Source: a virus. From it: a stretch of 51,263 nt of DNA. Below are positions 1 through 49,300 of the stretch, in pieces; position 1 is the first letter of the stretch; each line of letters opens with the position of its first letter. The translations under genes were made by a program, and so were the position numbers. The stretch is taken from the IMG/VR virus record IMGVR_UViG_3300010232_000005; one strand, given 5' to 3'. A model generated the notes under the pieces. That model saw only the letters and a list, made by a program, of their open reading frames with translations. It was not told the origin of the DNA and did no database searches.

Positions 1-55
1 GTGTCGAATCTTAACGTCGCCCGTGTCGGGTTCAAGGTGCCCGACCCAATCGTCG
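1..55. repeat. 55-bp exact terminal duplication (1-55 = 51209-51263), a signature of a circular or terminally redundant genome
   Basis: Read directly: gtgtcgaatcttaacgtcgcccgtgtcgggttcaaggtgcccgacccaatcgtcg occurs at both window ends. Confidence 0.95.
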
Positions 56-384
56 GCGGCGGCTTCGGCGGGATCGTCGCCGCCGTCGGTTGCGACCGCG
101 TCGCCGACGGCGTCTTCGAAGGCGTCGACGGTGTCGCCGAAGTCACGTTCGGCGTCGGTCGGGTCGCGGTCGTCACCGGTAAGGTGGTCGTCGGCATGAA
201 GCCCGTACGGGTCGCGGTCCTTCAATTCGGCGACGGCCGCTTCGACGTTAGCGGTTAGCGTCGGGTCGGCGTATTCGCCGTCGGGAAGGTTCGCCGCGAC
301 CGGGGCCGTGCGGTCGATATATTCGATTAGCCCGTCGGTCGATTTGTTTGCCGCGTCGAAGTCGGCGTCGGTGTGTCGCACCAT
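1..384 (-). CDS. N-terminal 128 codons of a wrap-around gene (MVRHT-class start). It continues in frame into 51208..50045, for about 515 aa in total.
   Basis: ATG at 384 (ATGGTGCGACACACC = MVRHT). The minus frame has no stop down to position 1. The phase matches the open frame entering the window end once the 55-bp duplication is accounted for. It is absent from the ORF track because it runs off the edge. Confidence 0.75.
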   Translation of the reverse strand, partial: MVRHTDADFDAANKSTDGLIEYIDRTAPVAANLPDGEYADPTLTANVEAAVAELKDRDPYGLHADDHLTGDDRDPTDAERDFGDTVDAFEDAVGDAVATDGGDDPAEAAADDWVGHLEPDTGDVKIRH

Positions 385-422
385 ATCTATACAGTACACC
401 CCCACGTACATAAGTGTGTCGG
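370..422 (-). promoter_or_regulatory. MVRHT promoter/start module, copy 1 (BRE-like CCGACACAC + TTATGTAC + GGTGCGACACACC box)
   Basis: The plus strand reads ggtgtgtcgcacc(370-382)...gtacataagtgtgtcgg(406-422). The same block is seen at 7 other sites. Confidence 0.7.
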
Positions 423-456
423 CGCTTTACACCATTATCAGTTACCGGTGTCGTTT

Positions 457-472
457 ACCGACACGTTTTTAC
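457..472 (+). promoter_or_regulatory. Promoter (ACCGACACGTTTTTAC) for the TFB-like gene
   Basis: Matches the genome-wide consensus in plus orientation. The T-run starts 32 nt upstream of ATG 498. Confidence 0.55.
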
Positions 473-497: not shown

Positions 498-1481
498 ATG
501 CCAAGCAATCAAACGCCGGGGAACCCCCGGCTAATCCGCGAATTGGCCGACGAAGTCGGCTTAGACGGATCGTTCGCCGACTTTGCGACCGACGTGTACG
601 GCGAAGTCGATAACGACGGTGGGTACGCGAAGGCGGGCGTTCCCGGTGCCGTGTATTCGGCGGTTCGGATTCGCGGCGAACCGATCAAACCGAAGGAAAT
701 TGCCGACGCCGCCGACGTCGACGTTAACCGTGTCATGTCTGATATGCGTCGCATGGTGCGGTCACTTCCGTTCGACGTGTCGGTCGGGGGCACCGAACGC
801 CGGTACGTCGAACGGTATGTCGACGCGCTAAACGCCGACGACGCCTTCCGTGAAACCGCGTTATCGCTTTGCGACGACGGAAAAGACGCCGACATTCATA
901 ACGGAAAGGCACCGTCGGCGTTCGCGGCGGCGGTCGTGTACGCCGCGTCGGTGGTCGACGAAGCCGGGTACGAACAGAAGCACGTCGCCGACGTCGCCGA
1001 CGTCACGACGACGATTATCCGCCGGTACTACCGCAACATTATCGCCACGTCGAACGACGCGACCGGGGCACCCGCCGACATTCCTGCCTTCGTCGATAGT
1101 GTCGTCGACGGAATCGGCGGCGACATTCCCGACGCCGTTCGCCAAGACGCGACGGAAATGGCACACGCTATCGACCCCGACGCCGGGTGGGTGCGGCGGT
1201 GCGACCCGAAGGCGATTGCGGCGGCGATTGTGTACGTCGCGGCGAAGCGCAACCGCGTCGACGTCACGCAAGCCGAAGCCGGCGAACCCGTCGGTATGTC
1301 TCGGCACGCCGTGAACGCGCGGTCGCAAGACGTGAAAGAATGGGATACGCGGCGGCGGCTTGAAGACGCAAATTACAACCGGCTGAAGGAACTTGCCGCC
1401 GAAAACGGGGCCGGTGTCGGGTCGACGCCCGAACGCGACCGCCTAATCGACGTCTTGGCGAATATGGGTGTCGAACCATAA
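498..1481 (+). CDS. TFB/TFIIB-like protein with cyclin-fold repeats only (no N-terminal zinc ribbon or B-reader)
   Basis: MPSNQTPGNPRLIRELADEVGL... followed by GKAPSAFAAAVVYAASVVDEAGYEQKHVADVADVTTTIIRRYYRNI, which resembles the TFB repeat-2 signature (sGk.P.g.AAAaiY.As...tQ.eva.vagVte.TiRnrY). Two further similar segments are present (GAVYSAVRIRGEPIKPKEIADAADV; DPKAIAAAIVYVAAKRNRVDVTQAE). The start was moved to ATG 498 because of promoter spacing and the basic junk N-terminus in the track ORF. Confidence 0.6.
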   Translation: MPSNQTPGNPRLIRELADEVGLDGSFADFATDVYGEVDNDGGYAKAGVPGAVYSAVRIRGEPIKPKEIADAADVDVNRVMSDMRRMVRSLPFDVSVGGTERRYVERYVDALNADDAFRETALSLCDDGKDADIHNGKAPSAFAAAVVYAASVVDEAGYEQKHVADVADVTTTIIRRYYRNIIATSNDATGAPADIPAFVDSVVDGIGGDIPDAVRQDATEMAHAIDPDAGWVRRCDPKAIAAAIVYVAAKRNRVDVTQAEAGEPVGMSRHAVNARSQDVKEWDTRRRLEDANYNRLKELAAENGAGVGSTPERDRLIDVLANMGVEP

Positions 1482-1966
1482 TGTTCGGGGGAAGCGACGC
1501 CGACGACCTTCCGTCGTCTATTGGCGAAGTAATCGACGACGTGACGACGCGGGGCGATATAGTGCCGCCCGACGTGCGGAAGCGCGCCGAACGGCAAGCG
1601 GTTCGGGCGGTTCGAAGCGACGCCGGACACCGATTCGAAAGTGACGGCTTCGACATGGATACGTGCGAAGACGCAGCACACGCCGTCGGATCGGCGGGCT
1701 TCCCCGAATCGGTTTGGTACACGTCGCCCGACGTCGTCGACGACATTCGGGAATGGTACGACCACCGTAACACCGTCGGCGACCACGAAGCGGACTTCGA
1801 TCCGGCCGTTATGGTCGCCAATCGGCACGTACGGCAAGCCCCCGACGGCGTCTTCGACCGCAACGTTATGCTTCTAATCGGCGACGGGGCGGTCGTGCCG
1901 GCACCCTTGTCGGTGTCGCGTGTCGTCGTTCGGAACCCCGACGGGGTTGCGGTGGTTCGGCTATGA
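1481..1966 (+). CDS. Hypothetical acidic protein
   Basis: 161-aa ORF with ATGA overlap to the upstream gene and GC3-rich codons. Confidence 0.6.
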   Translation: MFGGSDADDLPSSIGEVIDDVTTRGDIVPPDVRKRAERQAVRAVRSDAGHRFESDGFDMDTCEDAAHAVGSAGFPESVWYTSPDVVDDIREWYDHRNTVGDHEADFDPAVMVANRHVRQAPDGVFDRNVMLLIGDGAVVPAPLSVSRVVVRNPDGVAVVRL

Positions 1967-3904: not shown

Positions 3905-4447
3905 ATGTCGACGACCGTTGAACGTTCGCGTATGTCCAATTCGAAGGGGGATCGGTGGGAACGTAATTACGTTAACGCCCTATCAGCTAGCGACCCGGAA
4001 ACCGATAAGGGGGCGTATAACCGGGTCGGGATCGACGACTTTGCCTTCGTCGAACTTTTTACCGCTTTGCGTCTTCCGGCGTCGGGCGGTGGTCGTGACG
4101 CCGACCTTCCCGACCTTCATGTGTGGCTTCGTACGGGCGACGAAGTCTATCAATTCGCGGTCGAAGTCAAATCAGGGGCGGAACGCGTTAGCTTCGATAA
4201 CGACGAAATTTCGGCCCTTGAACGGTACGCACAAGCGACCGTGTCGACGGCCCTTGTGTTCGTACATATCGACAAGGATTCGCGTCACGACGATCTAGGC
4301 GGCGATTATGTGGTTCCTATCGACGACCTTCATTCGACCAACAAGGGGTATTCGTTCACGAAAATGCGTGACGGCGGGATCGACGTCGATCAATGTACTG
4401 GAATCCCGTTCGCGGAATGGGTGAAACGCCCGACGTCTTCGATTTAG
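3905..4447 (+). CDS. hjc: Holliday junction resolvase, archaeal Hjc family
   Basis: SKGDRWERNYVNAL ... LRLPASGGG..DLPDLHV ... FAVEVKSG ... ISALERYA, matching the Hjc motif order (KG..fEr, SG, D, E-x-K). The start is uncertain (3872, 3905 or 3932). Confidence 0.65.
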   Translation: MSTTVERSRMSNSKGDRWERNYVNALSASDPETDKGAYNRVGIDDFAFVELFTALRLPASGGGRDADLPDLHVWLRTGDEVYQFAVEVKSGAERVSFDNDEISALERYAQATVSTALVFVHIDKDSRHDDLGGDYVVPIDDLHSTNKGYSFTKMRDGGIDVDQCTGIPFAEWVKRPTSSI

Positions 4448-4812
4448 TCGTCTTCGCCCTTCTTTGTAGAATTAGTACCGCCAAATAGCAATCCGTCGAC
4501 GTCGGCTTTATCCGCCACTTTTTTCAAAAGTTCATAATTACGGTCGGTCTTGTCGTCGACGCGGTCGACCTTGTCTTCGACGCTTCGTACCCGGATTCGT
4601 AGGTCGGTATGCGATCCTTCTATTTCTTCGAATCGTTCGTCGGTACTTTGTAGGTGCCCGTCGTCTAATTCACCACCAGCAAGGGCTTCGTATGCGGGTT
4701 TTCCATACTGATAGTGTCGTATTGTTAAAAAGACCAACCATGAAAATATCGAACCGAATCCGAAGACAACAGCCCATACTAACACGTCGGCGACAACTTG
4801 ATCGGTAACCAT
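4444..4812 (-). CDS. Membrane-anchored coiled-coil protein
   Basis: The N-terminus has hydrophobic segments (VLVWAVVFGFGSIFSWLVFLTI), followed by heptad-like charged sequence. Confidence 0.55.
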   Translation of the reverse strand: MVTDQVVADVLVWAVVFGFGSIFSWLVFLTIRHYQYGKPAYEALAGGELDDGHLQSTDERFEEIEGSHTDLRIRVRSVEDKVDRVDDKTDRNYELLKKVADKADVDGLLFGGTNSTKKGEDD

Positions 4813-4882
4813 TCTAACTTTGCGTTCGTGCCAATGTGGTTTAATTTCTACCTTCCAACGTTTGGTTTTGCGCGTGCCCGTT

Positions 4883-6172
4883 TTATTCGAATTGTTCGTG
4901 CGGTAGTTCGAAGTCTATAACTTTGTTTCCGTTGTCGTCTTCGGCCCAAGCGTCATATGCCGACATTTCGACTTCGTCTTCGTTGTTCGTTGACGATTCG
5001 CACCCTATTCCCAAATAATAATACCCGGATTCGTCGCTAACGTCATAACTATCTACATTTTGGCCGAAGTTAGGGTCAATATATTCTATTCCAGTTCCGA
5101 CTTCGGCTTGTACGCCGGCCGGTTCGACGCCGCCAAGTGTTGGGTCTACTTTCGATTCGGCGGTCGGCCCGCCGCCTTCCGACGTTAGTGTATTCGCCGA
5201 CCATTCGACATAAATTCTGTCAGCTATATTTATTAAAAAGCGTTGCGTCGTGCGCGACCAAGCTAGTGCGTCTGTGCTTATCGAACTGGTTCCATCGGCT
5301 AATGCGTAATGGTACGTAGGTCCGTCGTTTGTAGTAAACGCGACCGATGTAGGTGGGTCAGAATCGTCACTTTCGTTGGGGTCTTCGAACGATTTTTCTA
5401 CCATATTAACGATTATCGGTTCGATTGCCTCATTCCATTGGACCAACAATCGAATTGTTCGACCCGATACGCCCGTTTCGACTTCGGTGATTCGGGCGGC
5501 GTATTCTTTGTCTATTTCTTCGTCTTTCGTAACGGAAGACGTGAATGTGTTTGTGCCGTCGCTTGGAATAGTGCCCGAAACAGTGTCGATAACCGTGCCG
5601 CTTGCACTTTCCGAGTCGGTCGGGTTAAATTCCAAAAACTCTATGTCGACGTCTATATCCCCATTCGACGTACCACTTAATACTAATTCCAATTGGCTGG
5701 CTTCGTCTATTTTGGGCGTGTATGGGTCGGCTTCCCATGAATCTACAATTATATTTAACCACGCTACCGGAACGATTCGACTATCGTTAGCTTGGTATTT
5801 AAAAGAACTTACGTCGTTTTTTGTCCTACTTTCTCTAAACGCGTATAAGCCCCCGGCTACAATAGTTTCCGTTTGTGTGCTAAACACCGAACCGTCTTCT
5901 TTCCATTCCGTCGTATAATCAATTCCTTCGCTGCTATTGTTTTGCACGTCCCAGCGCATATCGACCGATTTGCCGACTTCTAAAATCCTATCCGAAACCC
6001 ATAATTCCCCGACCGTCACACCCGACCCCAACCCATTCGTTTTTATGAATGCAAAATCCGAATCGTCGGTGTCATTTAGTAATTGGTTTTTTCCGTATGC
6101 AAATGTGTTTTGCGTCGGCAAACCGATCCCGACGGATTCGTCTTTGACAAATATAAAATCGCTTTCCGCCAT
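4883..6172 (-). CDS. Putative tail fibre / receptor-binding protein (low-GC cassette)
   Basis: 429-aa ORF at the distal end of the tail module, rich in S/T/N/G. Local GC is clearly lower than the genome average (about 42% in the line sampled at 5701-5760). Confidence 0.45.
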   Translation of the reverse strand: MAESDFIFVKDESVGIGLPTQNTFAYGKNQLLNDTDDSDFAFIKTNGLGSGVTVGELWVSDRILEVGKSVDMRWDVQNNSSEGIDYTTEWKEDGSVFSTQTETIVAGGLYAFRESRTKNDVSSFKYQANDSRIVPVAWLNIIVDSWEADPYTPKIDEASQLELVLSGTSNGDIDVDIEFLEFNPTDSESASGTVIDTVSGTIPSDGTNTFTSSVTKDEEIDKEYAARITEVETGVSGRTIRLLVQWNEAIEPIIVNMVEKSFEDPNESDDSDPPTSVAFTTNDGPTYHYALADGTSSISTDALAWSRTTQRFLINIADRIYVEWSANTLTSEGGGPTAESKVDPTLGGVEPAGVQAEVGTGIEYIDPNFGQNVDSYDVSDESGYYYLGIGCESSTNNEDEVEMSAYDAWAEDDNGNKVIDFELPHEQFE

Positions 6173-6173
6173 T

Positions 6174-6899
6174 TTAGTAACCGTAATACGACTTCGTTCT
6201 ATCGACCCAATTTTGTAAATCGTTTTTGGCTATGAAATTTTCCGAGATAAAGCACTGCCCTACGTCGATGTTCGCCACCCCACCATCGGAAGGGTGGCGG
6301 GCGAACTGGTGATCGTACGCTAAAGTATCATCTCGTAGTTCACTTGTGTCAACCGAGTCAGTCGCTACTTGGGAAAGGTTCGTCCCGATATACATGAGTG
6401 CATCCGTTCCGTCTGCGTGCCCGACAAAAGGTTGCCACGCACCAGTCGTGTAGTCGCTTTGACTCCAATTGCAGCCAAATACGGTCTGATTAGAGCTGGC
6501 ATTCGTGCCACAAACTACGAATTCGGTGTTATTGAGTCGCCAAGCATCCCCGTTTGAGGTGTCGTCACACCCAAAAATGGGCTTGTCGCTGTTGGCATTA
6601 TCTCGCACCCAGGCCCCAATTGTGAGCGTGGCTGTGTTTAGCGGAAAATTCAGGGTGCTTTTCGTGTCTGTGAGCGTGGTATACGAGTTAGTGGCCGAGT
6701 AATCAAGGTAATTTTTCCCCGAGGGTGTTGTGGCCCAGGAGGGGTTTGTTATATCACCATCAGCAGTGGACTCACTATCACTAAGTGTCAAGCCTGACCC
6801 TTCGCTGTGTTGCCAAACATAATCGGCGTCGTCCGGAACGGATATGTCAGTTACGTATTGAAGTCCGTTAGCCCTGAAACCCGCGTCATTAAGTCCCAT
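6174..6899 (-). CDS. LamG/concanavalin-A-like lectin-fold tail protein
   Basis: LTIGAWVRDNANSDKPIFG...GDAWRL...GAWQPFVGHADGTDALMYIGTN follows the Laminin_G_3-type pattern (f.t.saWv...; W.hv..v.dg....lY.dG). Confidence 0.55.
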   Translation of the reverse strand: MGLNDAGFRANGLQYVTDISVPDDADYVWQHSEGSGLTLSDSESTADGDITNPSWATTPSGKNYLDYSATNSYTTLTDTKSTLNFPLNTATLTIGAWVRDNANSDKPIFGCDDTSNGDAWRLNNTEFVVCGTNASSNQTVFGCNWSQSDYTTGAWQPFVGHADGTDALMYIGTNLSQVATDSVDTSELRDDTLAYDHQFARHPSDGGVANIDVGQCFISENFIAKNDLQNWVDRTKSYYGY

Positions 6900-6901
6900 A
6901 T

Positions 6902-7231
6902 TTATGCCTCGTCTACTTCTATTCCGACTGCATAGTAAAAGACTCCGGCGTTCCCACTGGTATTTTCAATTCGCAATCGGGTGTTTTTGACCGCACTTAT
7001 AATTAATTCATTTAATTGGCTGTGTGATTCGCCGGATAGACTATCAACTTGGACGCTTTGGTCGAATGTTCCGTCGTTGTTAGTGTCTATCTCCCTATAA
7101 ACCGTCGCGCTATCGCCGCCCCCTATTTCGACGATTTCGGCCGCACCCGTACCGCCGGTCGATCCTTCTATCGTAACACTATTTCCGTTGTCGGCTGTTC
7201 CCGACACGACGAAAGGGTCGTTTCGTGCCAT
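6902..7231 (-). CDS. Small tail-associated protein
   Basis: 109-aa ORF packed tightly between fibre genes. Confidence 0.5.
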   Translation of the reverse strand: MARNDPFVVSGTADNGNSVTIEGSTGGTGAAEIVEIGGGDSATVYREIDTNNDGTFDQSVQVDSLSGESHSQLNELIISAVKNTRLRIENTSGNAGVFYYAVGIEVDEA

Positions 7232-7232
7232 T

Positions 7233-7406
7233 CTATCGTCGTGACTTTGTTTTTTGCCGACGGTAATAATATTGTGCTTCCCTACCGCTTAGAAACGCTT
7301 CGGATTCGAAGTCGGCGGGCCGGTATGTTTTCTTCCGGCGTTGTAACATTTGTGCGACGTCTGACAAACTTACGACCGACGTTTCGGTTAGGGTTGTTAC
7401 GTACAT
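7233..7406 (-). CDS. Possible small basic ORF (57 aa), not in the track
   Basis: Hand translation from ATG 7406: MYVTTLTETSVVSLSDVAQMLQRRKKTYRPADFESEAFLSGREAQYYYRRQKTKSRR, with stop at 7233-7235. It fills the gap between two genes. Confidence 0.3.
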   Translation of the reverse strand: MYVTTLTETSVVSLSDVAQMLQRRKKTYRPADFESEAFLSGREAQYYYRRQKTKSRR

Positions 7407-7426
7407 GATTTTACTATCTTCTTGGT

Positions 7427-9178
7427 TTATGTATTAGTTTTCCCTTCGACGTGTGCGTTCCCTATGTCGATTGAGTTTCCGCTTCGGTTATCAACTAAAA
7501 CCGCAATCGTTTGGTCGCTTCCGCTCGTGTTTGTATAACTTGTGACCGGGTCGCCCGTGACGCGGTCCTGTATTGTTGTTCCGTCACCTTGTATAAGATA
7601 TTTGCGGGAATTGTACCCACCCGAATTATCCAATGTGACTAGTTTCATGTCGACGTCGGTTGGCATAGCTGAAAAACCCCCGTCGACCATTCCGCATTTG
7701 AATACTTCGACTGATTGCCCGTCGCCAATCGAATCGACAAGTAACACCGCTTGGCTTCCGTCCCCGACGCCCGAAGCACTACCTGAGGCGTCGAACGATT
7801 CTTTATAATCATAGGATATTTCGGCGGTAGTTCCGTCACCCGCGTCGGCCGCAGATAGCCCCGATATGAAATCGAATGTCGCAACGTCCGATATTACTTC
7901 GTTTCCGTCGTCGTCGGCGGCTGTGGGTCCACCCGATCCAGTAAAGTCGATTTTTGCCGTTCCATTATCGTCGGCCACTTCTAAATACGTATCGAAGTTT
8001 AGCGAACTCGTCGTCACGGTCGACGTGCCGCTATCTTTGATCGACACGTCGCTTCCACCGCCGCCGGACGTGTACCATTGGGTGTCGTCCGCGAAGACGA
8101 CGGTTGCCCCGTAGTCGGTAACAATCGTTTTCGACGACCCGCCGTCGATACCTTCGCCGCCTTCCGTGTCGATAGTGATATTATTCGATCCGGCACTTCC
8201 GCCGACGTCGACGACGATAACAAAGTTCGCACGGTCGGTCGTGCCTAAATCACTGGTTGCTAATGTCACTGTGACGGCACCGCCCGACGTATCGACGGGC
8301 ACGACTTCGTCGCCCGACGTCGTATAATTCGACGCTTTTGTCGACGAAAAGACGCGTTCGTCGTCGATTTTTAATCGGTTTATGGTCGTCAAAGTCGATA
8401 CTTTTGCGTCGGTAATAGCACCGCTGGCTAGTTGTGTGGTTCCGACGGCGGCGTCGGCTAATTCGTCGGAATCGACTGACCCCGATAGTATTTCCGCCGC
8501 TGTCACCGCGTCGGTTTGTATTTCGTTGGTGTCGACGGCGTCGGTTGCTATCTTGGCATTAGTGACGGAACCGTCGGCTAGTTCGTTTGTGCCGACCGCG
8601 TTCGTCGATATTTTCGCCGTCGTCACCGCACCGTCGGCTATTTTTACCGTCGTAATTGCTCCATCATTTACTTTTGCCTTCGTTATTGCGGAGTCGCTAA
8701 CTTCCGCCGTTTCTATTTGATAGTCGACCCCGGCGTGTGCCCGCCAATTTAAGATGTTGTCGTCGGTTAAGTCGCTAACGTCGTGTTCTATTAAACAAAC
8801 TGCCAAAAGCAATTGGTCGGCCGTTAGTGACGGCGTATCGGGCTTGGGATTAGGCGACCCTTCAATAACAGTATATCCCGGCACCGACGAATCAAACGCC
8901 ACGACGTCGACGCGGCGGTCGTCGTCGCCGTTTGTCGTGGTCGACGGCCCGTCGGATAATGTGAACGAGTTCGACGCGGGTGAATATGACGACCCACCAT
9001 ACCGAAGGTCGGTCGCCGACGCGACTGTAATTCCCATAGCGGTATTTCCGTCGGCCGTGACTTCGGCGTCGCCGTCGTTTTGTATCCCATTCCCGACGAA
9101 CGCTTCGGTGACCGCTTGTAGCAAGACGCCGTGAAACGTTTTCCCCGCCGGGGCTTCGAACGTATCGACTTCGGGCAT
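7427..9178 (-). CDS. Tail fibre protein with a 10 x 10-aa repeat shaft
   Basis: 583 aa. Residues about 161-263 read AITKAKVNDG/AITTVKIADG/AVTTAKISTN/AVGTNELADG/SVTNAKIATD/AVDTNEIQTD/AVTAAEILSG/SVDSDELADA/AVGTTQLASG/AITDAKVSTL. Confidence 0.6.
   Translation of the reverse strand: MPEVDTFEAPAGKTFHGVLLQAVTEAFVGNGIQNDGDAEVTADGNTAMGITVASATDLRYGGSSYSPASNSFTLSDGPSTTTNGDDDRRVDVVAFDSSVPGYTVIEGSPNPKPDTPSLTADQLLLAVCLIEHDVSDLTDDNILNWRAHAGVDYQIETAEVSDSAITKAKVNDGAITTVKIADGAVTTAKISTNAVGTNELADGSVTNAKIATDAVDTNEIQTDAVTAAEILSGSVDSDELADAAVGTTQLASGAITDAKVSTLTTINRLKIDDERVFSSTKASNYTTSGDEVVPVDTSGGAVTVTLATSDLGTTDRANFVIVVDVGGSAGSNNITIDTEGGEGIDGGSSKTIVTDYGATVVFADDTQWYTSGGGGSDVSIKDSGTSTVTTSSLNFDTYLEVADDNGTAKIDFTGSGGPTAADDDGNEVISDVATFDFISGLSAADAGDGTTAEISYDYKESFDASGSASGVGDGSQAVLLVDSIGDGQSVEVFKCGMVDGGFSAMPTDVDMKLVTLDNSGGYNSRKYLIQGDGTTIQDRVTGDPVTSYTNTSGSDQTIAVLVDNRSGNSIDIGNAHVEGKTNT
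8390..8698 (-). repeat. Coding tandem repeat (30-nt period) inside the fibre gene
   Basis: Decapeptide periodicity read from the translation. Confidence 0.7.
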
Positions 9179-9220
9179 GGGTTCGGGTTCGGCGTGCCCG
9201 GTCTTTAGCTTTGGCTACCG

Positions 9221-10216
9221 TTAGGATATTCGAAACTCACTTTCGGAATTAAACCCGACGTTCGACCGTTTCGTGAATTGGCTGAATGTGGTCGCCCATA
9301 GCATACGCCCGTCGCCGTCGAAAACGGCCAATTCGCTTAGGTCGACGGGTTGTATTCCCGATGGTTCCGACTCAAAAATATGCGTTCGCGTAATTATCCG
9401 GTCGCGGTCGATATTTCGCTCGCAATCTTTTCGAAATTGTTCGTCGGTAAGCGACGAATCCGTCTTATCGAAGTCGGTGTCGCCCGACCCGAATGCGAAT
9501 TCTACCGGCCCGGTGGCGGCGTATAGGTCGGCCATAGCGTCACGCACCGCCGTTTCGCCGTCGTTCGTGAATACGGAATTACCGACGCCGTCACCTTCGA
9601 ACGATAGCGTGACGTGCAACCGCACTTCGTCGGTTGGGTCTATATCCCATGTTCCATTAACCACCACACGCGCCAATAGCCGGTCGGATTCGTCGACGAT
9701 CCCATATTCGACCGGGTCGCCGACCCAAGAAACGGAATCATGGCGACCGATTGATTGTAATTCGTTTGACGACGGCTTGTCGTTTATCACGCGTGCGACG
9801 GCGAACACGTTCGTTAGGGCGTCGTCGCTTGTTTGCGGGTCGCTATCATTCGTCCCGGCTTTAGACTTAAATACGCGACCTTCTTGCCCGTCTAAGGCGC
9901 GGACGACGGCCCGACGCCCTTCTTTCGTAAATTCAGCGTCGACGGATACGTCGGAACCCGCTTCGACCCACCCGCCTTTATCGTCGCCAAACGTTCCCCG
10001 GTCAAATCCCTTTGATTCGTCGGGGTGCCCGAAGACGATTTGTGACCCCGTCGACCGCTTATATACCTTCGCGTCGAGGCCGACGTCGACGACTATTACC
10101 GTCGGCCCGAAAAACAAGTTGCGGTCGCGGTTCGAATCGACTTCGATAAATCGGTTACCGACCTTCCGTATTTGCTTGCGGTTTTCGGCGACAATTCGGT
10201 CTATATCACTTGTCAT
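9221..10216 (-). CDS. Tail/baseplate protein (assigned by position)
   Basis: 331-aa ORF within the contiguous tail gene block. Confidence 0.45.
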   Translation of the reverse strand: MTSDIDRIVAENRKQIRKVGNRFIEVDSNRDRNLFFGPTVIVVDVGLDAKVYKRSTGSQIVFGHPDESKGFDRGTFGDDKGGWVEAGSDVSVDAEFTKEGRRAVVRALDGQEGRVFKSKAGTNDSDPQTSDDALTNVFAVARVINDKPSSNELQSIGRHDSVSWVGDPVEYGIVDESDRLLARVVVNGTWDIDPTDEVRLHVTLSFEGDGVGNSVFTNDGETAVRDAMADLYAATGPVEFAFGSGDTDFDKTDSSLTDEQFRKDCERNIDRDRIITRTHIFESEPSGIQPVDLSELAVFDGDGRMLWATTFSQFTKRSNVGFNSESEFRIS

Positions 10217-10220
10217 GTTA

Positions 10221-11039
10221 TTATAGGCTGGGGTGAATTACCGTAATTGTTTTTGGCGATAGCGGGCCGATTGTAACCTCATATTGCCCGTATTCGGTAA
10301 AGTCTATTTCAAACGATACGGTCGCCCCTTGCCCGCTTCGCAATCGGCTTGCTTTTGCGTCGCGTACGATGTCGTCGATATATAGTTGTACTGTTTCTTG
10401 CCGGGTTTGCGAAGATATATTCTCAATATCACACTCGACGGTAAGCGTTTCGGCGACTTCGACCGCCGTATCCGACACCGTCAAATTCGAATACTGGAAT
10501 TCGAACGTGGTTTCGCCGTCGCTATCTCCGGGGTCGTCATTATCGGGGTCGGCGACTGATTCGGATATGTATACTTCTTTCCCCCATATTTCGGTCCCGC
10601 CTTGCGGTATTTCTTGCCCGTTGCGCCCAACCCCGGCCGACTCGTATACCTTTATTCCGGCGGCGGATCGGCCGACTTCATTTGTTATGTCGCTTCGAAA
10701 TTCGTTCGACGAAGTGTATTCGATATTAAATTCGTTATACGAATCAGTGTCTTTTATGAAAGAATCGAACTCAGAAAAAGAATCGAACTTATTTTCGAAG
10801 TTATTCCGGATTGTTTGGGCGCGTCTTTCCGATATTCCATTATCTATTAAGAATTGTTCGAATTCGTTGAAATTGCTTATATTGGCGTCTTCGTATGCGG
10901 ATAGAAAATCGTCCCAATCGCCGCCGAAGGCTTCTTGTAGGTCGATGGCTATCTGTTGACCGTCGAATTCTTGCTTAGTCGGTTGGCGAAGGCCCAACCA
11001 CACTAGTTTTTGTTCCTTTGTTAGTTGTGATTCCGTCAT
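10221..11039 (-). CDS. Tail/baseplate protein with a C-terminal CARDB/Ig-like domain
   Basis: The C-terminus VEVAETLTVECDIENISSQTRQETVQLYIDDIVRDAKASRLRSGQGATVSFEIDFTEYGQYEVTIG fits the CARDB-type beta-sandwich pattern. Confidence 0.4.
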   Translation of the reverse strand: MTESQLTKEQKLVWLGLRQPTKQEFDGQQIAIDLQEAFGGDWDDFLSAYEDANISNFNEFEQFLIDNGISERRAQTIRNNFENKFDSFSEFDSFIKDTDSYNEFNIEYTSSNEFRSDITNEVGRSAAGIKVYESAGVGRNGQEIPQGGTEIWGKEVYISESVADPDNDDPGDSDGETTFEFQYSNLTVSDTAVEVAETLTVECDIENISSQTRQETVQLYIDDIVRDAKASRLRSGQGATVSFEIDFTEYGQYEVTIGPLSPKTITVIHPSL

Positions 11040-11053
11040 AGGTGATTAACTGG

Positions 11054-12499
11054 TTAGGTGTTTATTTGTGTTTGCCCGCTAACGCCTATCGTCGTGTATC
11101 CTTCGGTGGTGCGTGACGTCTTGTCGATTGCGAACGTTCCCGATATGTCTTCTTTCGGCCAATCAATTAATACCGATTGCCCAACTTGAACATTCCGCCA
11201 TACCGACCCCGCAAGCACAAAAGTAATTGCCGAGTCTTGCCATGCGTTATCGTTCAAATAGCCCCGTGCCCGTGCCGCTAGCTGTTCGCGGGTTCGAAGC
11301 GACCCGTCATTGATCGGTTCGGATCGGGGCGCTTGTTCATTATAGAATTCTACCGATGCCGTATCTTCGTACGTTGCTTGTAGGTCGTCACGACCTTGTA
11401 TGGTGACGACATTCGTGACGTCGAAGTCGCGGTCGACGGTGACGTCGACGACTTGCGTGCCGGAATCGTCGCGTATTTCGTACAAAGCACCTTCGTCGCC
11501 GGCCGATTCGAAAATAAGTCGGTTGTTTTCGTCGGCAAAGACGGTAGCACCCGCTTCAATCGCTAACGAATCCGCTAACGATAGTATGGATTCGTTCACC
11601 GTTCGCGTGATTTGATCGTCGGTGTCGTCGATAACGTACGTTAGTGCCGTATTTCTATCATTCACTGTGAACGGTGTCGCCCGCGCCATGTCGATAGCCG
11701 CCGCCCTATGTTCCGGTAATGTCCCTTGCACTTCGAAACGATACCTTAGCGTGTGGGGCGTGTTCCCGGTGGTTATTTTGGCGTCTTCGACGTCGAATTG
11801 ATACGTTCGCCATGTCGCTATTCCGCGTATCGGTATTTCCCATTCGTACCCGATTCCGTCGCCGTCGACTAATTCGACATACACGTCGAAGACGTTACCC
11901 CGGTTATTTACGACCATTCGGGTTTCGAATTCGTATATTCGACGGCCCGGTGCCGCTTCCGACGGTACATTATCGAATGTGACTTCGTACGATCCCGATT
12001 CGCCTTCTAATATTCCGACGAAAATTGTATCACGACCGAAGTTATTGATTCCGGAAGAATCATTAGTTAATTCGAATATATCCGATTCCGACGACCAATT
12101 CGACGTATCATCGGCAAACGATATTTTCCGACTTGTGGTGTAATTTTCTATTTCTTTGTTGATTGCACGGCGGAGTATTTCGGCCCGCGACAACTCGATA
12201 AACGGGCGGTTTACCTTCCCGTGTTCGGCTTGCCCCGCTAACGTTTCCGCTTCGATTGTTAGCGTTAGGTTTCGCATTTGTTGGTTCGACGGCTTCCCAA
12301 TTATTTCGCCCGACCACTGTTTGTCGCCGCCTTCGAATATTTCGACGTCGGCACCGGATACGGCTAAGGATCGGTTCGACGAACTATTGGCGACGACTGT
12401 TTCGGCGGTTCCGATTGAATCACCCGACGGTTTTTCGTATTTTACGTCGATTATGTTGGTCGGTTCGGTGCCGTCAATTTCGACGATTGGTGTTACCAT
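11054..12499 (-). CDS. Tail tip/baseplate hub protein (Tal-like by position)
   Basis: 481 aa, second gene downstream of the tape measure. Confidence 0.45.
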   Translation of the reverse strand: MVTPIVEIDGTEPTNIIDVKYEKPSGDSIGTAETVVANSSSNRSLAVSGADVEIFEGGDKQWSGEIIGKPSNQQMRNLTLTIEAETLAGQAEHGKVNRPFIELSRAEILRRAINKEIENYTTSRKISFADDTSNWSSESDIFELTNDSSGINNFGRDTIFVGILEGESGSYEVTFDNVPSEAAPGRRIYEFETRMVVNNRGNVFDVYVELVDGDGIGYEWEIPIRGIATWRTYQFDVEDAKITTGNTPHTLRYRFEVQGTLPEHRAAAIDMARATPFTVNDRNTALTYVIDDTDDQITRTVNESILSLADSLAIEAGATVFADENNRLIFESAGDEGALYEIRDDSGTQVVDVTVDRDFDVTNVVTIQGRDDLQATYEDTASVEFYNEQAPRSEPINDGSLRTREQLAARARGYLNDNAWQDSAITFVLAGSVWRNVQVGQSVLIDWPKEDISGTFAIDKTSRTTEGYTTIGVSGQTQINT

Positions 12500-12500
12500 G

Positions 12501-12950: not shown

Positions 12951-12955
12951 ATATT

Positions 12956-15174: not shown

Positions 15175-15191
15175 GGGGAAAAGCGTGCCGC
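15175..15191 (-). promoter_or_regulatory. Consensus promoter (GCGGCACGCTTTTCCCC on the gene strand)
   Basis: It directly follows the major-tail-protein stop codon. The TATA-like element starts 30 nt upstream of ATG 15153. Confidence 0.5.
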
Positions 15192-16118
15192 TTAGACCGA
15201 CGACCACGTCACCCAAGCGTCATTTGGGATAAGCGACACCGTCGTCGTCGGTGCCCCTTCCTCGGGGTACGGGTACGGAGCGGATTCGATACCGACTTCG
15301 CGGAATTCGAACCCAAGCGTGTCGCCGTCACGCACGAAGTTAATGCTTGCACTACCCGCGTCGTCACGACCTAGTAGGTCTTGGAATAGGGAATCGTCGA
15401 CCGGCGTTACGTCGGCGGTGATAGCGTGCCCCGCGTTCCCGTAGTGCATTTCGTACGGGTCATCGGGCGAATTCGGTTGTATGTAGTACCGTGGGTCTAA
15501 GTTGTTCGAAAGTTCCCATTCGAAGTCTTCGACACGGGCGTAATCCGTCCCCTTTAGCGAAAGGTACGAATCGGCGTCGTGAAACATGAACGACCCGGCG
15601 GAAAGGTCGGAAATAGACGTCGCCGTCGATCCCGTCGTGACGCCTTGGGCTTGGAAATCCATGTCGACTTGAAGCTGGCTTTCGTTATCGACGCCGATTG
15701 TAGCCGTGTCGACGGCGTTCCCCGCGAAGGTGCGAACGAAGTCGGCGTCGGTGTCGTGCCCATAATACGCCGCTTCGACCGTCATGGTTCGGGGAACCGG
15801 GGCGTTTTCGACATTGATTTGCCCCGACGATAGGTCGTTCCCGAAGATTATTTCGAACGGGTATTCGTCGACGGGCAAGACGGTTAACGACCCACCGTCG
15901 TACGTGTTTCTCCCCGCTTCTTTCCCCGATAATTGCCGGCCCTGATTGTCGATATTGCGTTCTTCTTGCCAATCGACTTCGGGGTCGGGCATATCGCCCG
16001 AATCGGTGATAATACCTAACGGTCGTTGCGGCGTCGTTTCGGTTCCGTGGTCGGATTCTTTGGCGACACCGATTTGGGCGTCGTGTCGCACTAGCGGGTA
16101 ATCTCCCGTCGTCGACAT
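15192..16118 (-). CDS. Major tail protein (siphovirus type)
   Basis: 308 aa, positioned between the connector genes and the chaperones. No sheath gene is present. Confidence 0.6.
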   Translation of the reverse strand: MSTTGDYPLVRHDAQIGVAKESDHGTETTPQRPLGIITDSGDMPDPEVDWQEERNIDNQGRQLSGKEAGRNTYDGGSLTVLPVDEYPFEIIFGNDLSSGQINVENAPVPRTMTVEAAYYGHDTDADFVRTFAGNAVDTATIGVDNESQLQVDMDFQAQGVTTGSTATSISDLSAGSFMFHDADSYLSLKGTDYARVEDFEWELSNNLDPRYYIQPNSPDDPYEMHYGNAGHAITADVTPVDDSLFQDLLGRDDAGSASINFVRDGDTLGFEFREVGIESAPYPYPEEGAPTTTVSLIPNDAWVTWSSV

Positions 16119-17008: not shown

Positions 17009-17050
17009 ATCTACCTATTGGGGGTGGGGGTACATAAGTGTAACGGTGTC
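16994..17050 (-). promoter_or_regulatory. MVRHT promoter/start module, copy 2
   Basis: ggtgtgtcgcaccat...gtacataagtgtaacggtgtcc. Confidence 0.7.
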
Positions 17051-22216: not shown

Positions 22217-22506
22217 GCGACCCTACAATCGTTAAAAAACACCTACTGGCATTAATGTATACTTGCGTTTACCGTTCGTAGTTGGGTAAACGGTACACGT
22301 CGAAAGGGAATGTGGAAAGGTGGGGTGGGGGTGGATTGCCGCGTACCTCTGACATTCCCGCAAGGGAAGCGACACCGACGTCGTGCCGGTGAAAGCGACC
22401 GTGTGGGGAGAACGGAATTAAGGGCGACACACCTAACCCGTTCCCGGTCGCGGCGGCGGTATGCCGCCGGGTGATTTTTCCAATCGAATATGTAAAAGCG
22501 TGCCGC
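22217..22506 (-). other. 290-nt non-coding spacer between portal and protease genes (promoter plus structured leader or ncRNA candidate)
   Basis: No credible ORF. A consensus promoter lies at 22492-22506. An 8-bp stem pairs gggaatgt (22306-22313) with acattccc (22352-22359). A hairpin cggcgg-tatg-ccgccg (22454-22469) lies next to a T5/A5 run (22475-22479). Confidence 0.5.
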
Positions 22507-25080
22507 TTAGAGAACGCCGTCTAATCGGTCTTCGTATTTATTCCGGTAGCGGTATAACGTCGGCTTCGATAGTAACCCGTTCGCTTTGTGGTCGTAATTC
22601 GGCGACGCTTTAAGCCGTCGGTCTATCGCACGCTTCGCCCCTTCGACCGCACCGTCGGATTCGTCGAACGCCCGGCGAAGCACTTGTCGAATGTCTTCAC
22701 CTAATGCTTGTTCGATTTCCCGTTCCCGTGACGACCGACTTTTGATGTATTCGCCGATCCCGCCGACGACGTCGGCGTACGATTCGGCGTCGGCGTCGTG
22801 GTCGGACTTACACGACGCTTTGTTGAATTCGTTGGCACCGGGGACGTCGACGTCTATATCGACGTCGGCGGCTGCGTCGCGCACGAAGGTCTTCCGACAA
22901 TTGATGTGCGGGACGTGCCGGCGGAATTGAAGGTCGGGGAAGTGATAGTTAGACGCTTCCCGTTCAAGGCGCACAAGCGTCTTCATGTCGACGCTTTCGC
23001 CGGGGTAATTGTCGAAGGCTTCCGGCGTCCCCGACGCCGACCCCGTCGCTATCATTAGGTCTTCGCATAGTTGGGTCGTACGCGAATCTTCGGACCCTTG
23101 CCAATAGAATCGGAAGCGGTCGGCGTCTTCGCGGCTTTCGTACCCGACTTCGCGGGCTTCGTTAAGCACCGACGTCGTTTCCGTCCGGGCGACTGTTTCG
23201 AGGGCTTCGTCGTCGACGCCGGGGAACGCGTCGGAAAGACGGTCGGTAATAGAATCAAGCGACCACCCTTGCGGTTGGGTAAGCGAATCCCGCAAGGTGT
23301 CTTCTAAGGTTTCCCGAAGCGTTCCGGGGACCGATTGTATTTGATCGAATATCGCACCCCGGTCTATGGATTCTAAGACACCTTCGCGCACGTATTCCGG
23401 CACTTCGTCGTCGCGGTTCCATGCCCGCTTTTCTATGTCGTCGACGGAATCGGGTTGGATTTGCGACTTGTGTGCGTCGATTAGCGACCGTTCGTATGCC
23501 GCCCATTCGTCGTCGGATAGTGCCGCGACGACGCCGTCGCCACTATTCCCGTTTCCCGTATCACCCGCACCGTCGGCGGTTTGAAGGTCGGCCATTTGGT
23601 CAACGTCGGCTTCGTCGACGGGGACGAACGTGCCGGTGTTCGTGTTCTTGAAGCCTTCGACGCCGTCTTCGACCGCAAGTTCCCAGTGGGACGCCTTGTC
23701 GACCGACGCGAATATCCCACCCATATCGCCCCCGTCGTCTTCCGACGGTGTAATTTCGCCGTCTTCGACGACTAACCGACCGTCGCGGAACGACACCGTT
23801 GCTTCGGAATCTTCTAACGCCGTCGCCATTTCTTGCCCGGCTTCGGCTTGTTCGCGGATTAGCGACGCCCGCGTTTCCCGTTCTTCGGGGGTTTGTTCGC
23901 GTTCGAATTCGAAGACGACGTCGTCGCTAATGTCCGTCCATACCAATTGCCGGTTAAGCGATTCTTCTAACTGTTGCAGGGTGACGCGGAAGCCCCGTTG
24001 CTTGAACGCTTCCCTTTGGGATTTGTCGGTCGCCCGATTCACGTTTTCGAAGTCGAATCCTGCGTACGACGGATTGACTTTGAAGACCGACCCCAAGACC
24101 GTTACCCAATACTTCGACCGTTGTAATATCTGTAATTCCTGATAGTTCGCGGTGATCGGTTCGAACGCGACCGGGATTTTCGAATAGCCGACGCGGTGCC
24201 GTTCGCCTTCGTCTAGCTGCATTTGTTCGACGAAGGTATCCCAATCTTCGTCGGGGACCGTGCCACCGAATTCGTCGTTATAGTCGGGGGAAATGACGCC
24301 GGGATTCGAACCGGCGATAAGGTCTAAGCGTTCTTTTTCGGCAAGTTCTTCGACTAATTCGACTTCGTTTTGTGACTTTTCTAACGGGCCTTGCCCGTAA
24401 TGGCGGTCGGGGCGAATCGACCATGAAAACCACACGACTTCGTCGGTGTCGAATTTGTTAGCGACGTCCCGGTTCCGACGGCTAGCCTGAATGTACGAAT
24501 CGGTGATACCGAAGTCGTCGACTTGCTTAAACATGGTCGACGAATCGACGACGACGGCTTCGGCAAGGTCGTTCGTCCCTTCGTAATAGTGCTTTACCCA
24601 TGTCGCGTCGCCCAATTCTAACAGTATCCGGGACGTTCCTTCTAAGACGTCGTGAAATGGCAATTCCGGGTGTATGCTTCTAAGGTCGCGTTCGTATTCC
24701 GCTAACTTCGCGTCTGAAATAGTCGCGTCTTCGTCGCGTGCCCTTAGCGTCCATGACGCCGACGCGACGTCTTGGGAAAGGGTGTCGATATAGGCTTGAA
24801 CGACGGCGTTTGCCGACAAGTCCCGAAGGAATAGCGGGTCGTACGGCTTTCGCATACCGCCGGCTTCGACGACGGATTGTTGAATTGCGGCGAAGGCTTG
24901 TGCCCGGCGGTCGACTGATTGCTTTTCGACCACGCCGTCGCCGGAATTGTATCGACGACGACGGTGTCGCCATTCCGACCGTCGCCGCGAATCGCCCGCC
25001 GTTTCGTCGGGGGATCGGTCGACACCGCCTTTCGTGACGGGCGACGCAAGCGACCGAATAAAGTTGTCAAGACGCGACAT
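22507..25080 (-). CDS. Portal protein fused to a MuF/SPP1-gp7-like head morphogenesis domain
   Basis: 857 aa. The C-terminal half contains ETVARTETTSVLNEAREVGYE...FRFYWQGSEDSRTTQLCEDL, typical of the Phage_Mu_F domain. It lies upstream of protease and capsid. Confidence 0.7.
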   Translation of the reverse strand: MSRLDNFIRSLASPVTKGGVDRSPDETAGDSRRRSEWRHRRRRYNSGDGVVEKQSVDRRAQAFAAIQQSVVEAGGMRKPYDPLFLRDLSANAVVQAYIDTLSQDVASASWTLRARDEDATISDAKLAEYERDLRSIHPELPFHDVLEGTSRILLELGDATWVKHYYEGTNDLAEAVVVDSSTMFKQVDDFGITDSYIQASRRNRDVANKFDTDEVVWFSWSIRPDRHYGQGPLEKSQNEVELVEELAEKERLDLIAGSNPGVISPDYNDEFGGTVPDEDWDTFVEQMQLDEGERHRVGYSKIPVAFEPITANYQELQILQRSKYWVTVLGSVFKVNPSYAGFDFENVNRATDKSQREAFKQRGFRVTLQQLEESLNRQLVWTDISDDVVFEFEREQTPEERETRASLIREQAEAGQEMATALEDSEATVSFRDGRLVVEDGEITPSEDDGGDMGGIFASVDKASHWELAVEDGVEGFKNTNTGTFVPVDEADVDQMADLQTADGAGDTGNGNSGDGVVAALSDDEWAAYERSLIDAHKSQIQPDSVDDIEKRAWNRDDEVPEYVREGVLESIDRGAIFDQIQSVPGTLRETLEDTLRDSLTQPQGWSLDSITDRLSDAFPGVDDEALETVARTETTSVLNEAREVGYESREDADRFRFYWQGSEDSRTTQLCEDLMIATGSASGTPEAFDNYPGESVDMKTLVRLEREASNYHFPDLQFRRHVPHINCRKTFVRDAAADVDIDVDVPGANEFNKASCKSDHDADAESYADVVGGIGEYIKSRSSREREIEQALGEDIRQVLRRAFDESDGAVEGAKRAIDRRLKASPNYDHKANGLLSKPTLYRYRNKYEDRLDGVL

Positions 25081-28688: not shown

Positions 28689-28705
28689 GGTAAAAGCGTG
28701 CCGGT
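28689..28705 (-). promoter_or_regulatory. Consensus promoter ACCGGCACGCTTTTACC
   Basis: The plus strand reads ggtaaaagcgtgccggt. Confidence 0.5.
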
Positions 28706-28727
28706 AAATATCTGTTTAGTAGCGGGT

Positions 28728-29590: not shown

Positions 29591-29608
29591 TTACAAAAGC
29601 GTGCCGGT
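29591..29608 (-). promoter_or_regulatory. Consensus promoter ACCGGCACGCTTTTGTAA, with its CTTTT element starting 27 nt upstream of the methyltransferase ATG
   Basis: The plus strand reads ttacaaaagcgtgccggt. Confidence 0.5.
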
Positions 29609-29630
29609 AGATTTCTGAAAAGTAGCGTCG

Positions 29631-30160: not shown

Positions 30161-30234
30161 ACCCTATCTTACGTTCCCAGGTACATAAGTGTATCGTTGT
30201 ATATCGGTGTGTAATCCACCGACACATTTATTAC
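30146..30234. promoter_or_regulatory. Divergent promoter region: MVRHT module copy 3 (minus) and CACCGACACATTTATTAC (plus)
   Basis: ggtgtgtcgcaccat...ggtacataagtg on one side and caccgacacatttattac (30217-30234) on the other. Confidence 0.6.
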
Positions 30235-31682: not shown

Positions 31683-31705
31683 GTAATTATTCCGGCTTGT
31701 AAGGT

Positions 31706-31757
31706 ACCGACACACTTTTGTACCCATGTTCCGTACGGGTTCACATGGTGCGACACC
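31706..31757 (+). promoter_or_regulatory. MVRHT-type module, plus-strand variant (copy 8)
   Basis: ACCGACACACTTTTGTACCCatgttccgtacgggttcacATGGTGCGACACC. Confidence 0.6.
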
Positions 31758-34261: not shown

Positions 34262-34302
34262 AGGGTGCGTTTAATGTTCGTGTATGGAAAGCGTGCCGGT
34301 CC

Positions 34303-36118: not shown

Positions 36119-36158
36119 ATCTACCTATTAGGCACCGGGGTACATAAGTGTGTCGGTG
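36104..36158 (-). promoter_or_regulatory. MVRHT promoter/start module, copy 4 (reference copy)
   Basis: Gene strand: CACCGACACACTTATGTACCCCGGTGCCTAATAGGTAGATATGGTGCGACACACC. Confidence 0.7.
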
Positions 36159-38913: not shown

Positions 38914-38991
38914 GACACCCGTACGGTGGTCGAACACAGGAAAAAGCGTGCCGGTGGCTGGCTGAGTGATAGGGTTGGTGGAGGTCGGTTC

Positions 38992-41110: not shown

Positions 41111-41150
41111 ATCTACCTATTAGGTGCGGGGGTACATAACTGTGTCGGTG
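41096..41150 (-). promoter_or_regulatory. MVRHT promoter/start module, copy 5
   Basis: ggtgtgtcgcaccatatctacctattaggtgcgggggtacataactgtgtcggtg. Confidence 0.7.
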
Positions 41151-43516: not shown

Positions 43517-43653
43517 GCTATCGTGGTCGTGCGGGGGGAGCTAAAGCGTGCCGGTGATCGACGTGTGGCGTATAAACTGTATGTTGGGATATAGAACGTT
43601 AGCCGGTGGCAAAGTCGAAGTCGTCACGAACCGACCGTTTCCTAGGCGGGTGA

Positions 43654-47200: not shown

Positions 47201-47220
47201 GGTAAAGGCGTGTCGGTGGT
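47201..47220 (-). promoter_or_regulatory. Consensus promoter (ACCACCGACACGCCTTTACC) driving the tRNA-PCNA operon
   Basis: The CTTTACC element starts about 30 nt upstream of the tRNA-Gln 5' end. Confidence 0.5.
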
Positions 47221-49239: not shown

Positions 49240-49300
49240 GTAGGTGTCGCCCCTATCCGTCGGCTATACCGGCAAGTGGTAAAACCGTGTCGGTGTCTCA

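Follow-up and report, generated by a model that had tools for sequence, protein, structure and literature searches.

What can a virus achieve with a transcription factor B (TFB) that has kept the domain touching promoter DNA and lost the parts that bring in the RNA polymerase? The question is raised by a gene in a stretch of viral DNA of 51,263 nucleotides (nt; IMG/VR record IMGVR_UViG_3300010232_000005), here called the window. In archaeal TFB and its homologue TFIIB, the N-terminal zinc ribbon recruits the polymerase, the linker acts within the active-site cleft and is needed for promoter opening, and the second cyclin fold reads the TFB-recognition element, BRE (PMC7289017). Archaeal viruses are thought to use the TBP and TFB of their hosts, with small repressors and activators layered on top (PMC5569661). 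The gene in question encodes a TFB-like core without the N-terminal parts, and it occurs in a viral lineage in which the normal promoter tag has been replaced by another one. We suggest, tentatively, that the two belong together.

That the virus encodes a homologue of the TFB/TFIIB core with three TFIIB-type segments had been proposed in a first-pass annotation made from the letters alone, and the profile search that it recommended bears this out. The protein matches the TFIIB repeat of Pfam (PF00382) with E = 2e-18 and 66.6 bits against a cut-off of 23.6, in three stretches, the best of which, residues 101-182, is also the segment that the annotation had regarded as the strongest. In searches of PDB sequences, the P. 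woesei TFB core (1ais_B/1d3u_B) is found at E = 1e-12 and the human TFIIB core at E = 3e-7, with human residues 121-298 aligned to residues 13-187 of the viral protein. The structure predicted by AlphaFold2 (AF2) from 20 homologues, with a mean predicted local distance difference test (pLDDT) of 84.7, consists of three five-helix bundles followed by two short helices. It superposes on TFB/TFIIB cores: the top PDB matches in Foldseek are such cores in TBP-DNA complexes and full pre-initiation complexes, with a TM score of 0.69 to 1ais_B. The root-mean-square deviation from human TFIIB in pre-initiation complexes is 2.9 Å over 178 columns, while that from the apo form is 12.9 Å, and in the model the two-repeat arrangement matches the TBP-DNA-bound form of TFIIB rather than the apo form. 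The NCBIfam model for TFIIB, PRK00423, is also found, with E = 2.7e-21, yet the 76 bits obtained are below the curated score of 384 for a full-length factor. Since this score is so low and both ribbon and linker are missing, the protein does not count as a TFB in the functional sense; it is a member of the TFIIB cyclin-repeat superfamily.

The residues by which TFIIB holds DNA are in part preserved. In repeat 1, R57 is the counterpart of human TFIIB R169 and varies neither in the close family nor in the wider alignment; a 'DGGY' loop is present in place of the KGR recognition loop, and the position of human R154 is occupied by Y or F. The recognition helix of repeat 2, TTTIIRRYYRNI, aligns to the BRE-reading helix of TFB and may itself read a BRE, and R175 aligns with human R286, being invariant in the close family and nearly so in the wider alignment. 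The third segment is, by profile comparison, a true and full TFIIB cyclin repeat: repeat 3 aligns to repeat 2 with 97% probability and E = 1e-10 (hhalign), and its profile finds 1ais_B at E = 1.5e-10 and can be aligned with either TFB repeat, the helix-turn-helix (HTH) included. Both HTH recognition helices thus carry arginines that are invariant in the close family, in a protein that is otherwise acidic. The repeats are followed by a tail (Table 1) with helices at residues 293-302 and 313-323 in the AF2 model, joined by a 10-residue connector. It matches Pfam Ish1 in seven of 15 family members (best E 0.0067) and SAP in two of the 15, all under the curated thresholds, and a profile search of the PDB gave no match; tentatively, we assign it to the helix-extended loop-helix (HeH) or SAP-like type.

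The absence of the N-terminal domain, also claimed at the outset, is equally clear. Cys125 and Cys235 are the only cysteines in the protein, and nothing in it matches the zinc ribbon PF08271, the domain with four Cys/His residues that docks on the RNA polymerase. The first cyclin helix is preceded by 12 variable residues, and residue 13 corresponds to residue 121 of human TFIIB, where the core starts. The annotation had conceded that an upstream start or exon might still provide a normal ribbon. There is an in-frame stop upstream of ATG 498, and the sole in-frame extension, from GTG 414, would add 28 residues that contain no CxxC and overlap the promoter; the N-termini of the homologues also agree with ATG 498. 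All of 20 close homologues (38-78% identical, 297-360 residues) lack the ribbon and begin at the same point. When a profile of the TFB N-terminal domain, made from six seed sequences that include the P. furiosus TFB N-terminus, was run against the genome translated in all six frames, the best E was 0.52 and no ribbon, B-reader or B-linker was found. A split TFB with its ribbon elsewhere in the virus was not detectable: six small zinc-ribbon open reading frames (ORFs) gave generic sub-threshold matches only, and the divergently encoded 515-residue multi-cysteine protein, checked as a possible ribbon source, has no Pfam match. As judged from these sequences, ribbon, B-reader and B-linker are absent, and their absence is a conserved feature of the family. 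A decayed remnant of a captured host gene is ruled out by the 38-78% identity within the family, by invariant positions in the three repeats and in the tail, and by the fixed genomic position.

An exhaustive search of 1.84 billion representative sequences gave 573 matches, ten of them below 1e-30 and all of these about 260-355 residues long; the close homologues, about 20, are all metagenomic. Two peptide patterns detected no proviral or cellular copy of the close family in 185,579 species genomes, and the gene has neither a DNA match nor a tblastn protein match in the GenBank phage and archaeal-virus records. In the eight homologue contigs that were read, the gene has the same position in syntenic tailed-virus contigs, the longest of which measure about 52 kb. 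As a rule it is divergent from a gene for 460-535 residues and upstream of the Hjc resolvase and tail genes, and this position at a divergent promoter pair is conserved in relatives that are 38-70% identical. A more distant protein, in contig L094 (42% identical), lacks the tail, as do a number of ribbon-less three-repeat proteins, about 290-310 residues long, that form a looser set. Two ribbon-less TFB-like genes are also found close together in Halosimplex carlsbadense (AOIU01000020.1, our L095), at 10001-10903 (300 residues) and 11928-12806 (292 residues), amid toxin-antitoxin, AAA and methyltransferase genes on a contig that looks like a mobile element; from this follows that the wider three-repeat family is not confined to the viral lineage considered here.

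Which DNA could such a core read? The first-pass annotation had pointed to an unusual BRE-like element, CCGrCACrC, before nearly every viral TATA box and before the TFB-like gene itself. The element is real, precedes most viral TATA boxes and is indeed present in the promoter of the gene; its consensus had to be revised to aCCGrCACGc-TTTTA. The sequence CCGRCACR occurs 51 times in the window, where 19.6 ± 4.3 occurrences are expected, and the composite CGRCACRNTTW 16 times, compared with 1.7 expected from dinucleotide shuffles (maximum 5). When, without reference to any motif, the 60 nt upstream of 64 acidic ORFs were inspected, the top hexamers were pieces of the motif, and CGRCAC had its peak at -37 from the ATG. 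From 68 sites in nine contigs the consensus is A-C-C-G-R-C-A-C-G-c, directly abutting TTTTa. Some 10 nt ahead of the start there is a weak A-rich position, and eight promoters of the window have the ATG at +37. The layout is that of standard haloarchaeal leaderless promoters, and the element takes the place of the BRE. It contains about 13 bits over 10 bp, a figure that is inflated by the choice of sites with the core pattern; even so, it exceeds that of the usual BRE. It precedes the TFB-like gene, the divergent gene, a methyltransferase gene, the structural operons and a tRNA.

For the TFB-like gene, ATG 498 is 39 nt from the C of CGACAC, and its mRNA is therefore leaderless or nearly so. 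Just upstream of this promoter lies an inverted extra copy of the element (Table 1), and the pair (GTGTCG-N4/5-C(C)GRCAC) is kept upstream of the orthologues in L001 and L006 and not in L003 and L005; the inverted copy is possibly an autoregulatory site. To call the locus an early control region, as had been done at first, is a guess. The promoters fall into subclasses: cACCGACACA-yTTATGTAC at MVRHT genes, yACCGGCACG-CTTTTAC at most other genes, and tctAAGCGGCACG-CTTTT at structural operons (15190, 22505 and 5600, minus strand). Timing may be encoded in the two R positions and in the three bases that precede CG.

The neighbour transcribed divergently from the TFB-like gene does begin with MVRHT, as had been noticed, but the protein module that was read into these letters is a DNA element. 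Seven genes start MVRH(T/H), and their proteins are unrelated past the first residues. What they have in common is the sequence GGTGCGACA(C) at the 5' end of the transcript, and in L094 it immediately precedes the ATG, within the 5' leader (genes ending at 9868, 9213 and 4378, and a gene starting at 10983). This shared sequence includes a GGTG-N5-CACC inverted repeat and another CGACAC-like copy, about 43 bp downstream from the one in the BRE position, and could be an initiator-like element or an operator.

Gene and element occur together. All nine contigs that encode the gene (the window, L001, L003, L005, L006, L008, L009, L010 and L094) have the element, and so has L076, a fragment from this lineage that stops some 1.1 kb before the expected gene locus; these ten contigs contain 2-16 strict sites each, and none contains a canonical GAAA-TATA site. 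The nearest cultured relatives, HHTV-2 and HCTV-2, have no TFB-like gene and 0-1 viral-type sites, and their promoters, GGGAAAC-cTTTATA or GGGAAAC-TTAG, are of the canonical BRE type. The haloarchaeal BRE is CGAAA-like (PMC10123103), although that of this virus's own host may differ, and the viral element therefore differs from the standard host tag. In a scan of 2.9 million IMG/VR contigs, multi-copy ACCGRCACGCTTTTA is confined to this lineage, with the exception of one contig that has two copies in a terminal repeat. The promoters of the lineage all carry a private 10-bp tag at the place where the TFB core touches DNA, and the swap of the normal tag for a private one in viruses that carry the gene suggests viral redirection of host transcription.

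How gene and tag could work together may be pictured as follows. The reading that we favour, tentatively and with considerable doubt, is that the protein is a virus-specific TFB core which, with host TBP, recognises the private promoter tag. Protein and TBP would assemble on the private promoters of the lineage, where repeat 2, and perhaps also repeat 3, would read aCCGrCACGc, which abuts the TTTTA box from upstream in the place of a BRE. Viral promoters would thereby be tagged, and limiting TBP, and through TBP the host machinery, would be drawn to them. The TFB-like gene is itself under a promoter with this element, so that at least weak firing of it by host factors alone must be possible; host TFB would fire viral promoters weakly at the start of infection, and the factor would then be a feed-forward amplifier or selector. 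In place of the ribbon, the polymerase might be recruited by repeat 3, by the tail or by the N-terminal domain of host TFB captured in trans.

The analysis shows the domain architecture, the loss of the N-terminal domain, the existence and position of the element, and its occurrence together with the gene; that the protein binds TBP, reads the element and does so with a positive outcome is inferred along several lines. A strictly conserved element of 10 bp implies positive recognition by a specific factor. The protein is a candidate for this factor because tag and protein are both lineage-specific and the arginines of the recognition helices are invariant, and the position of the element at the contact site of the repeat-2 HTH of TFB is in line with the role of the second cyclin fold (PMC7289017). 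The co-occurrence of gene and element in the lineage, and the absence of both from cultured relatives with a canonical BRE, favour the marking of viral promoters over pure host shut-off, the two possibilities put forward in the first-pass annotation. In a stronger version, the three-repeat core, together with host TBP, would nucleate pre-initiation complexes at a virus-only BRE and recruit RNA polymerase without a ribbon or B-reader of its own. This private initiation pathway is unlikely, but would, if true, be the first virus-encoded basal factor with promoter specificity in Archaea, a counterpart of the phage sigma factors.

Several observations weigh against recognition of the tag by the protein with a positive effect. 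As the ribbon recruits the polymerase (PMC7289017), a core-only TFB is expected to block initiation rather than to promote it, and the profile search of the six-frame translation (best E 0.52) found no ribbon or B-reader elsewhere in the genome that could compensate. At the position of human V283 the family members have T, V, A or R, while their promoters keep the CGRCAC core, so that no covariation between helix and motif is visible. Furthermore, the element is present on all viral promoters, including that of the gene itself, without the early/late split expected of a switch factor, and host factors must therefore recognise it unaided. Gene and element could be associated because they descend together in one viral lineage and not because they are functionally coupled, and promoters of the virus's own host may carry the element as well.

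The default expectation for a protein whose loss of ribbon, B-reader and B-linker is complete and conserved is competitive inhibition, since the lost parts are those that recruit polymerase (PMC7289017). As a dominant-negative decoy, the core would hold host TBP-TATA(-BRE) complexes and exclude full-length host TFB, and thereby shut off the host, while viral promoters would escape, their divergent element being poorly bound by the decoy yet usable by host TFB. Such a decoy also predicts that the gene co-occurs with non-canonical viral promoters, and global repression by an archaeal virus has a precedent in RIP/ORF145 of ATV (PMC5123050). We hold this to be improbable, in that mere avoidance of a decoy should diversify the sequence in the BRE position, whereas a 10-bp element is kept across viruses with proteins that are only 38-45% identical. 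A mimic of the host factor should, in addition, keep the canonical helix (VTEVTIRNRY in the host-type TFB P0187), whereas the family has TTTIIRRYY, variable at the base-contacting positions, and for a simple decoy the extra HTH-bearing repeat and the tail would be superfluous.

Blocking by a core-only protein might also be directed at the virus itself. A repressor or timer, bound with TBP to the element so as to block the polymerase at viral promoters, could provide autoregulation, temporal control or silencing of the carrier-state or lysogeny type. It is, however, difficult to reconcile with an element on nearly every promoter, including those of a tRNA and the structural operons, since known repressor operators are few and the silencing of everything fits a latent state only; none of the proteins scanned was recognised as an integrase, the 185,579 species genomes yielded no relative with the two peptide patterns, and the contig is a free circle. 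We therefore give it little weight, even though blocking is what the architecture predicts and several features of the promoters suit it: the gene lies at a divergent promoter pair, the inverted extra copy in its own promoter (GTGTCG-N5-CGACAC, 448-464) is conserved in L001 and L006, seven promoters repeat a CGACAC-like sequence where the transcript starts (GGTGCGACAC), and the differences between subclasses at the R positions and the three upstream bases (ACC or AAG) could allow graded control. Just as doubtful is that something else reads the element, a host TFB or TBP paralogue or another viral DNA-binding protein, and that the TFB-like protein has an unrelated scaffold role, for example in sequestering TBP. 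Haloarchaea do have many TFB and TBP paralogues, some with promoter preference (PMC7289017), the first viral promoters must be fired by host factors, recognition helix and motif do not covary, and wider ribbon-less three-repeat relatives, such as the two in H. carlsbadense, occur without the viral motif. Against this speak the invariant arginines in both HTH recognition helices of an otherwise acidic protein, the placement of the element exactly at the TFB contact site, and the presence of gene and element together in every contig examined.

Recognition of private promoters by a basal factor of the virus's own, as we favour it, has parallels elsewhere. Phage sigma factors, MotA/AsiA of phage T4 and the viral TBP-like late-gene factors of herpesviruses all redirect the host polymerase by such a combination, and all have shown contacts with the polymerase. 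The haloviral protein is not homologous to them and has no polymerase-contacting domain, and activation by it is only proposed. Sulfolobus TFB3, a cellular, DNA-damage-induced and non-viral protein, is the complementary truncation, in which the ribbon is kept and the cyclin core is absent. It, too, is a truncated TFB paralogue that cannot replace TFB, and it demonstrates that parts of TFB can act separately, in that it activates in trans with canonical TFB (PMC7289017). With the archaeal and human cores (P. woesei 1AIS and 1D3U, human 1VOL and 1C9B) the viral protein shares two cyclin repeats, modelled in the arrangement of the TBP-DNA-bound form, and the arginine equivalent to R286; it differs from them by the missing ribbon, B-reader and B-linker, by the third repeat and HeH-like tail, and by Y/F instead of R154. 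RIP/ORF145 of ATV likewise comes from an archaeal virus and interferes with the basal machinery, but it has an unrelated fold and binds inside the DNA channel of the polymerase instead of at promoters (PMC5123050).

TFIIB-fold proteins in viruses are as such already known, from the rudiviruses MRV1, ARV3 and SSRV1 (10.1101/2020.01.16.907410) and from Asgard wyrdviruses (10.1101/2021.07.29.453957), and the best BFVD matches of the present protein are viral TFB/TFIIB homologues, among them TFIIBs of giant viruses. These viruses belong to other realms and have other hosts, and giant viruses pair their TFIIB with a polymerase of their own. In the literature searched, neither a three-repeat ribbon-less architecture nor a lineage-wide replaced BRE is reported for these homologues, no ribbon-less or three-repeat TFB is described in haloarchaeal viruses, and TFB goes unmentioned in the main survey of archaeal tailed viruses. 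What appears to be new, as we found no earlier report, is thus the architecture together with the replaced BRE. A viral basal factor stripped of its polymerase-recruiting domain, in combination with a lineage-wide rewritten BRE, would be a new route for takeover or shut-off of archaeal, eukaryote-like transcription. As a natural separation-of-function variant of TFB, it may serve to ask what the core does alone, what determines BRE specificity and whether there is another way to recruit polymerase. These matters are directly testable, the protein being small and the element short and sharply defined, with HHTV-2 and HCTV-2 as built-in controls that have a canonical BRE.

Table 1. Positions in the window of the TFB-like gene, its surroundings and other features discussed in the text (aa, amino acids)
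Feature	Positions	Strand	Remarks
Coding sequence of TFB-like protein	498..1481	+	327 aa, acidic; ATG 498, stop TAA 1479-1481
TFIIB-type cyclin repeat 1	522..782	+	aa 9-95
TFIIB-type cyclin repeat 2	783..1055	+	aa 96-186; helix-turn-helix that in TFB reads the BRE
Third, extra TFIIB-type cyclin repeat	1056..1367	+	aa 187-290; own helix-turn-helix SRHAVNARSQDV, R275 invariant
C-terminal tail, tentatively helix-extended loop-helix	1368..1478	+	37 residues, YNxLKxLA...GVxVGxxPxRxxLIxxL..GV, strongly conserved
BRE-position element of TFB-like gene	456..465	+	tACCGACACG
TATA-like box of TFB-like gene	466..472	+	TTTTTAC
Inverted extra copy of element	445..453	not assigned	CCGGTGTCG; forms GTGTCG-N5-CGACAC (448-464) with promoter copy
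Divergent promoter	406..422	-	CCGACACA + CTTATGTAC; drives MVRHT gene
Divergent gene, 5' part	1..384	-	515 aa, acidic, multi-Cys; starts MVRHT; crosses circular junction to 50045-51208; no Pfam match
Downstream ORF	1481..1966	+	161 aa; ATG overlaps stop (TAATG); no family match
Viral-type promoter	15177..15193	-	aagCGGCACGCTTTTCC; before tail-region operon
Viral-type promoter	22492..22508	-	aagCGGCACGCTTTTAC; upstream of protease and major capsid genes
Viral-type promoter	28690..28706	-	taCCGGCACGCTTTTAC
Viral-type promoter	29593..29609	-	before D12 N6-adenine methyltransferase gene
Viral-type promoter	30217..30233	+	caCCGACACATTTATTAC
Viral-type promoter	31705..31721	+	before MVRHH gene (zinc ribbon and HTH protein)
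Viral-type promoter	34285..34301	-	before 65-aa zinc-ribbon protein
Viral-type promoter, MVRHT class	36142..36158	-	
Viral-type promoter	38940..38956	-	caCCGGCACGCTTTTTC
Viral-type promoter, MVRHT class	41134..41150	-	
Viral-type promoter	43540..43556	-	caCCGGCACGCTTTAGC
Viral-type promoter	47202..47218	-	directly upstream of tRNA-Gln
Viral-type promoter	49279..49295	-	caCCGACACGGTTTTAC
MVRH-type loci	357-433, 16981-17057, 30121-30160, 31707-31760		
MVRH-type loci, continued	36091-36167, 41083-41159, 44697-44773		
tRNA-Leu(TAA), tRNA-Gln(TTG)	46958-47040, 47104-47176	-	virus-encoded

The ORF downstream of the TFB-like gene (Table 1) is probably co-transcribed with it. The window as a whole is the complete genome of a tailed virus of a haloarchaeon. 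As its first 55 nt (1-55) are identical to its last (51209-51263), the contig represents a closed genome of 51,208 bp, a free circle. It encodes the large terminase subunit, portal, prohead protease, major capsid protein, tape measure and baseplate proteins, and further the Hjc resolvase, a D12 adenine methyltransferase, an HNH endonuclease and two tRNAs; its proteins are acidic and its content of guanine and cytosine (GC) is about 58%. Nearest in culture are HHTV-2 and HCTV-2, siphoviruses of Haloarcula in the family Saparoviridae, with major capsid proteins that are only 45-47% identical over 94-95% of the length and with a similar gene order in the tail and head modules. At the nucleotide level, the window has no match in the GenBank phage and archaeal-virus records, these two viruses included.

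Some minor observations concern other parts of the window. The viral-type promoter before tRNA-Gln is an arrangement repeated in L001, L006 and L076. Three 37-nt direct repeats at 49880-50060 (consensus GTCACAACGGACAGAAAACCCTCGTAGGGATTGAAAC), with spacers of 34 and 36 nt, look like a mini-CRISPR array and adjoin the HNH endonuclease gene (49301-49888). The core of the repeat is in no haloarchaeal genome in GTDB, and when used as a host clue it gave six single chance matches, all in bacterial metagenome-assembled genomes, from which no host was assigned; a block of about 750 bp, repeats and HNH gene together, is absent from the syntenic relative L076. In the distal tail and baseplate region, at 4000-13000, the GC content is 49-50%, compared with about 60% elsewhere, which suggests a mosaic or recently exchanged host-recognition module.

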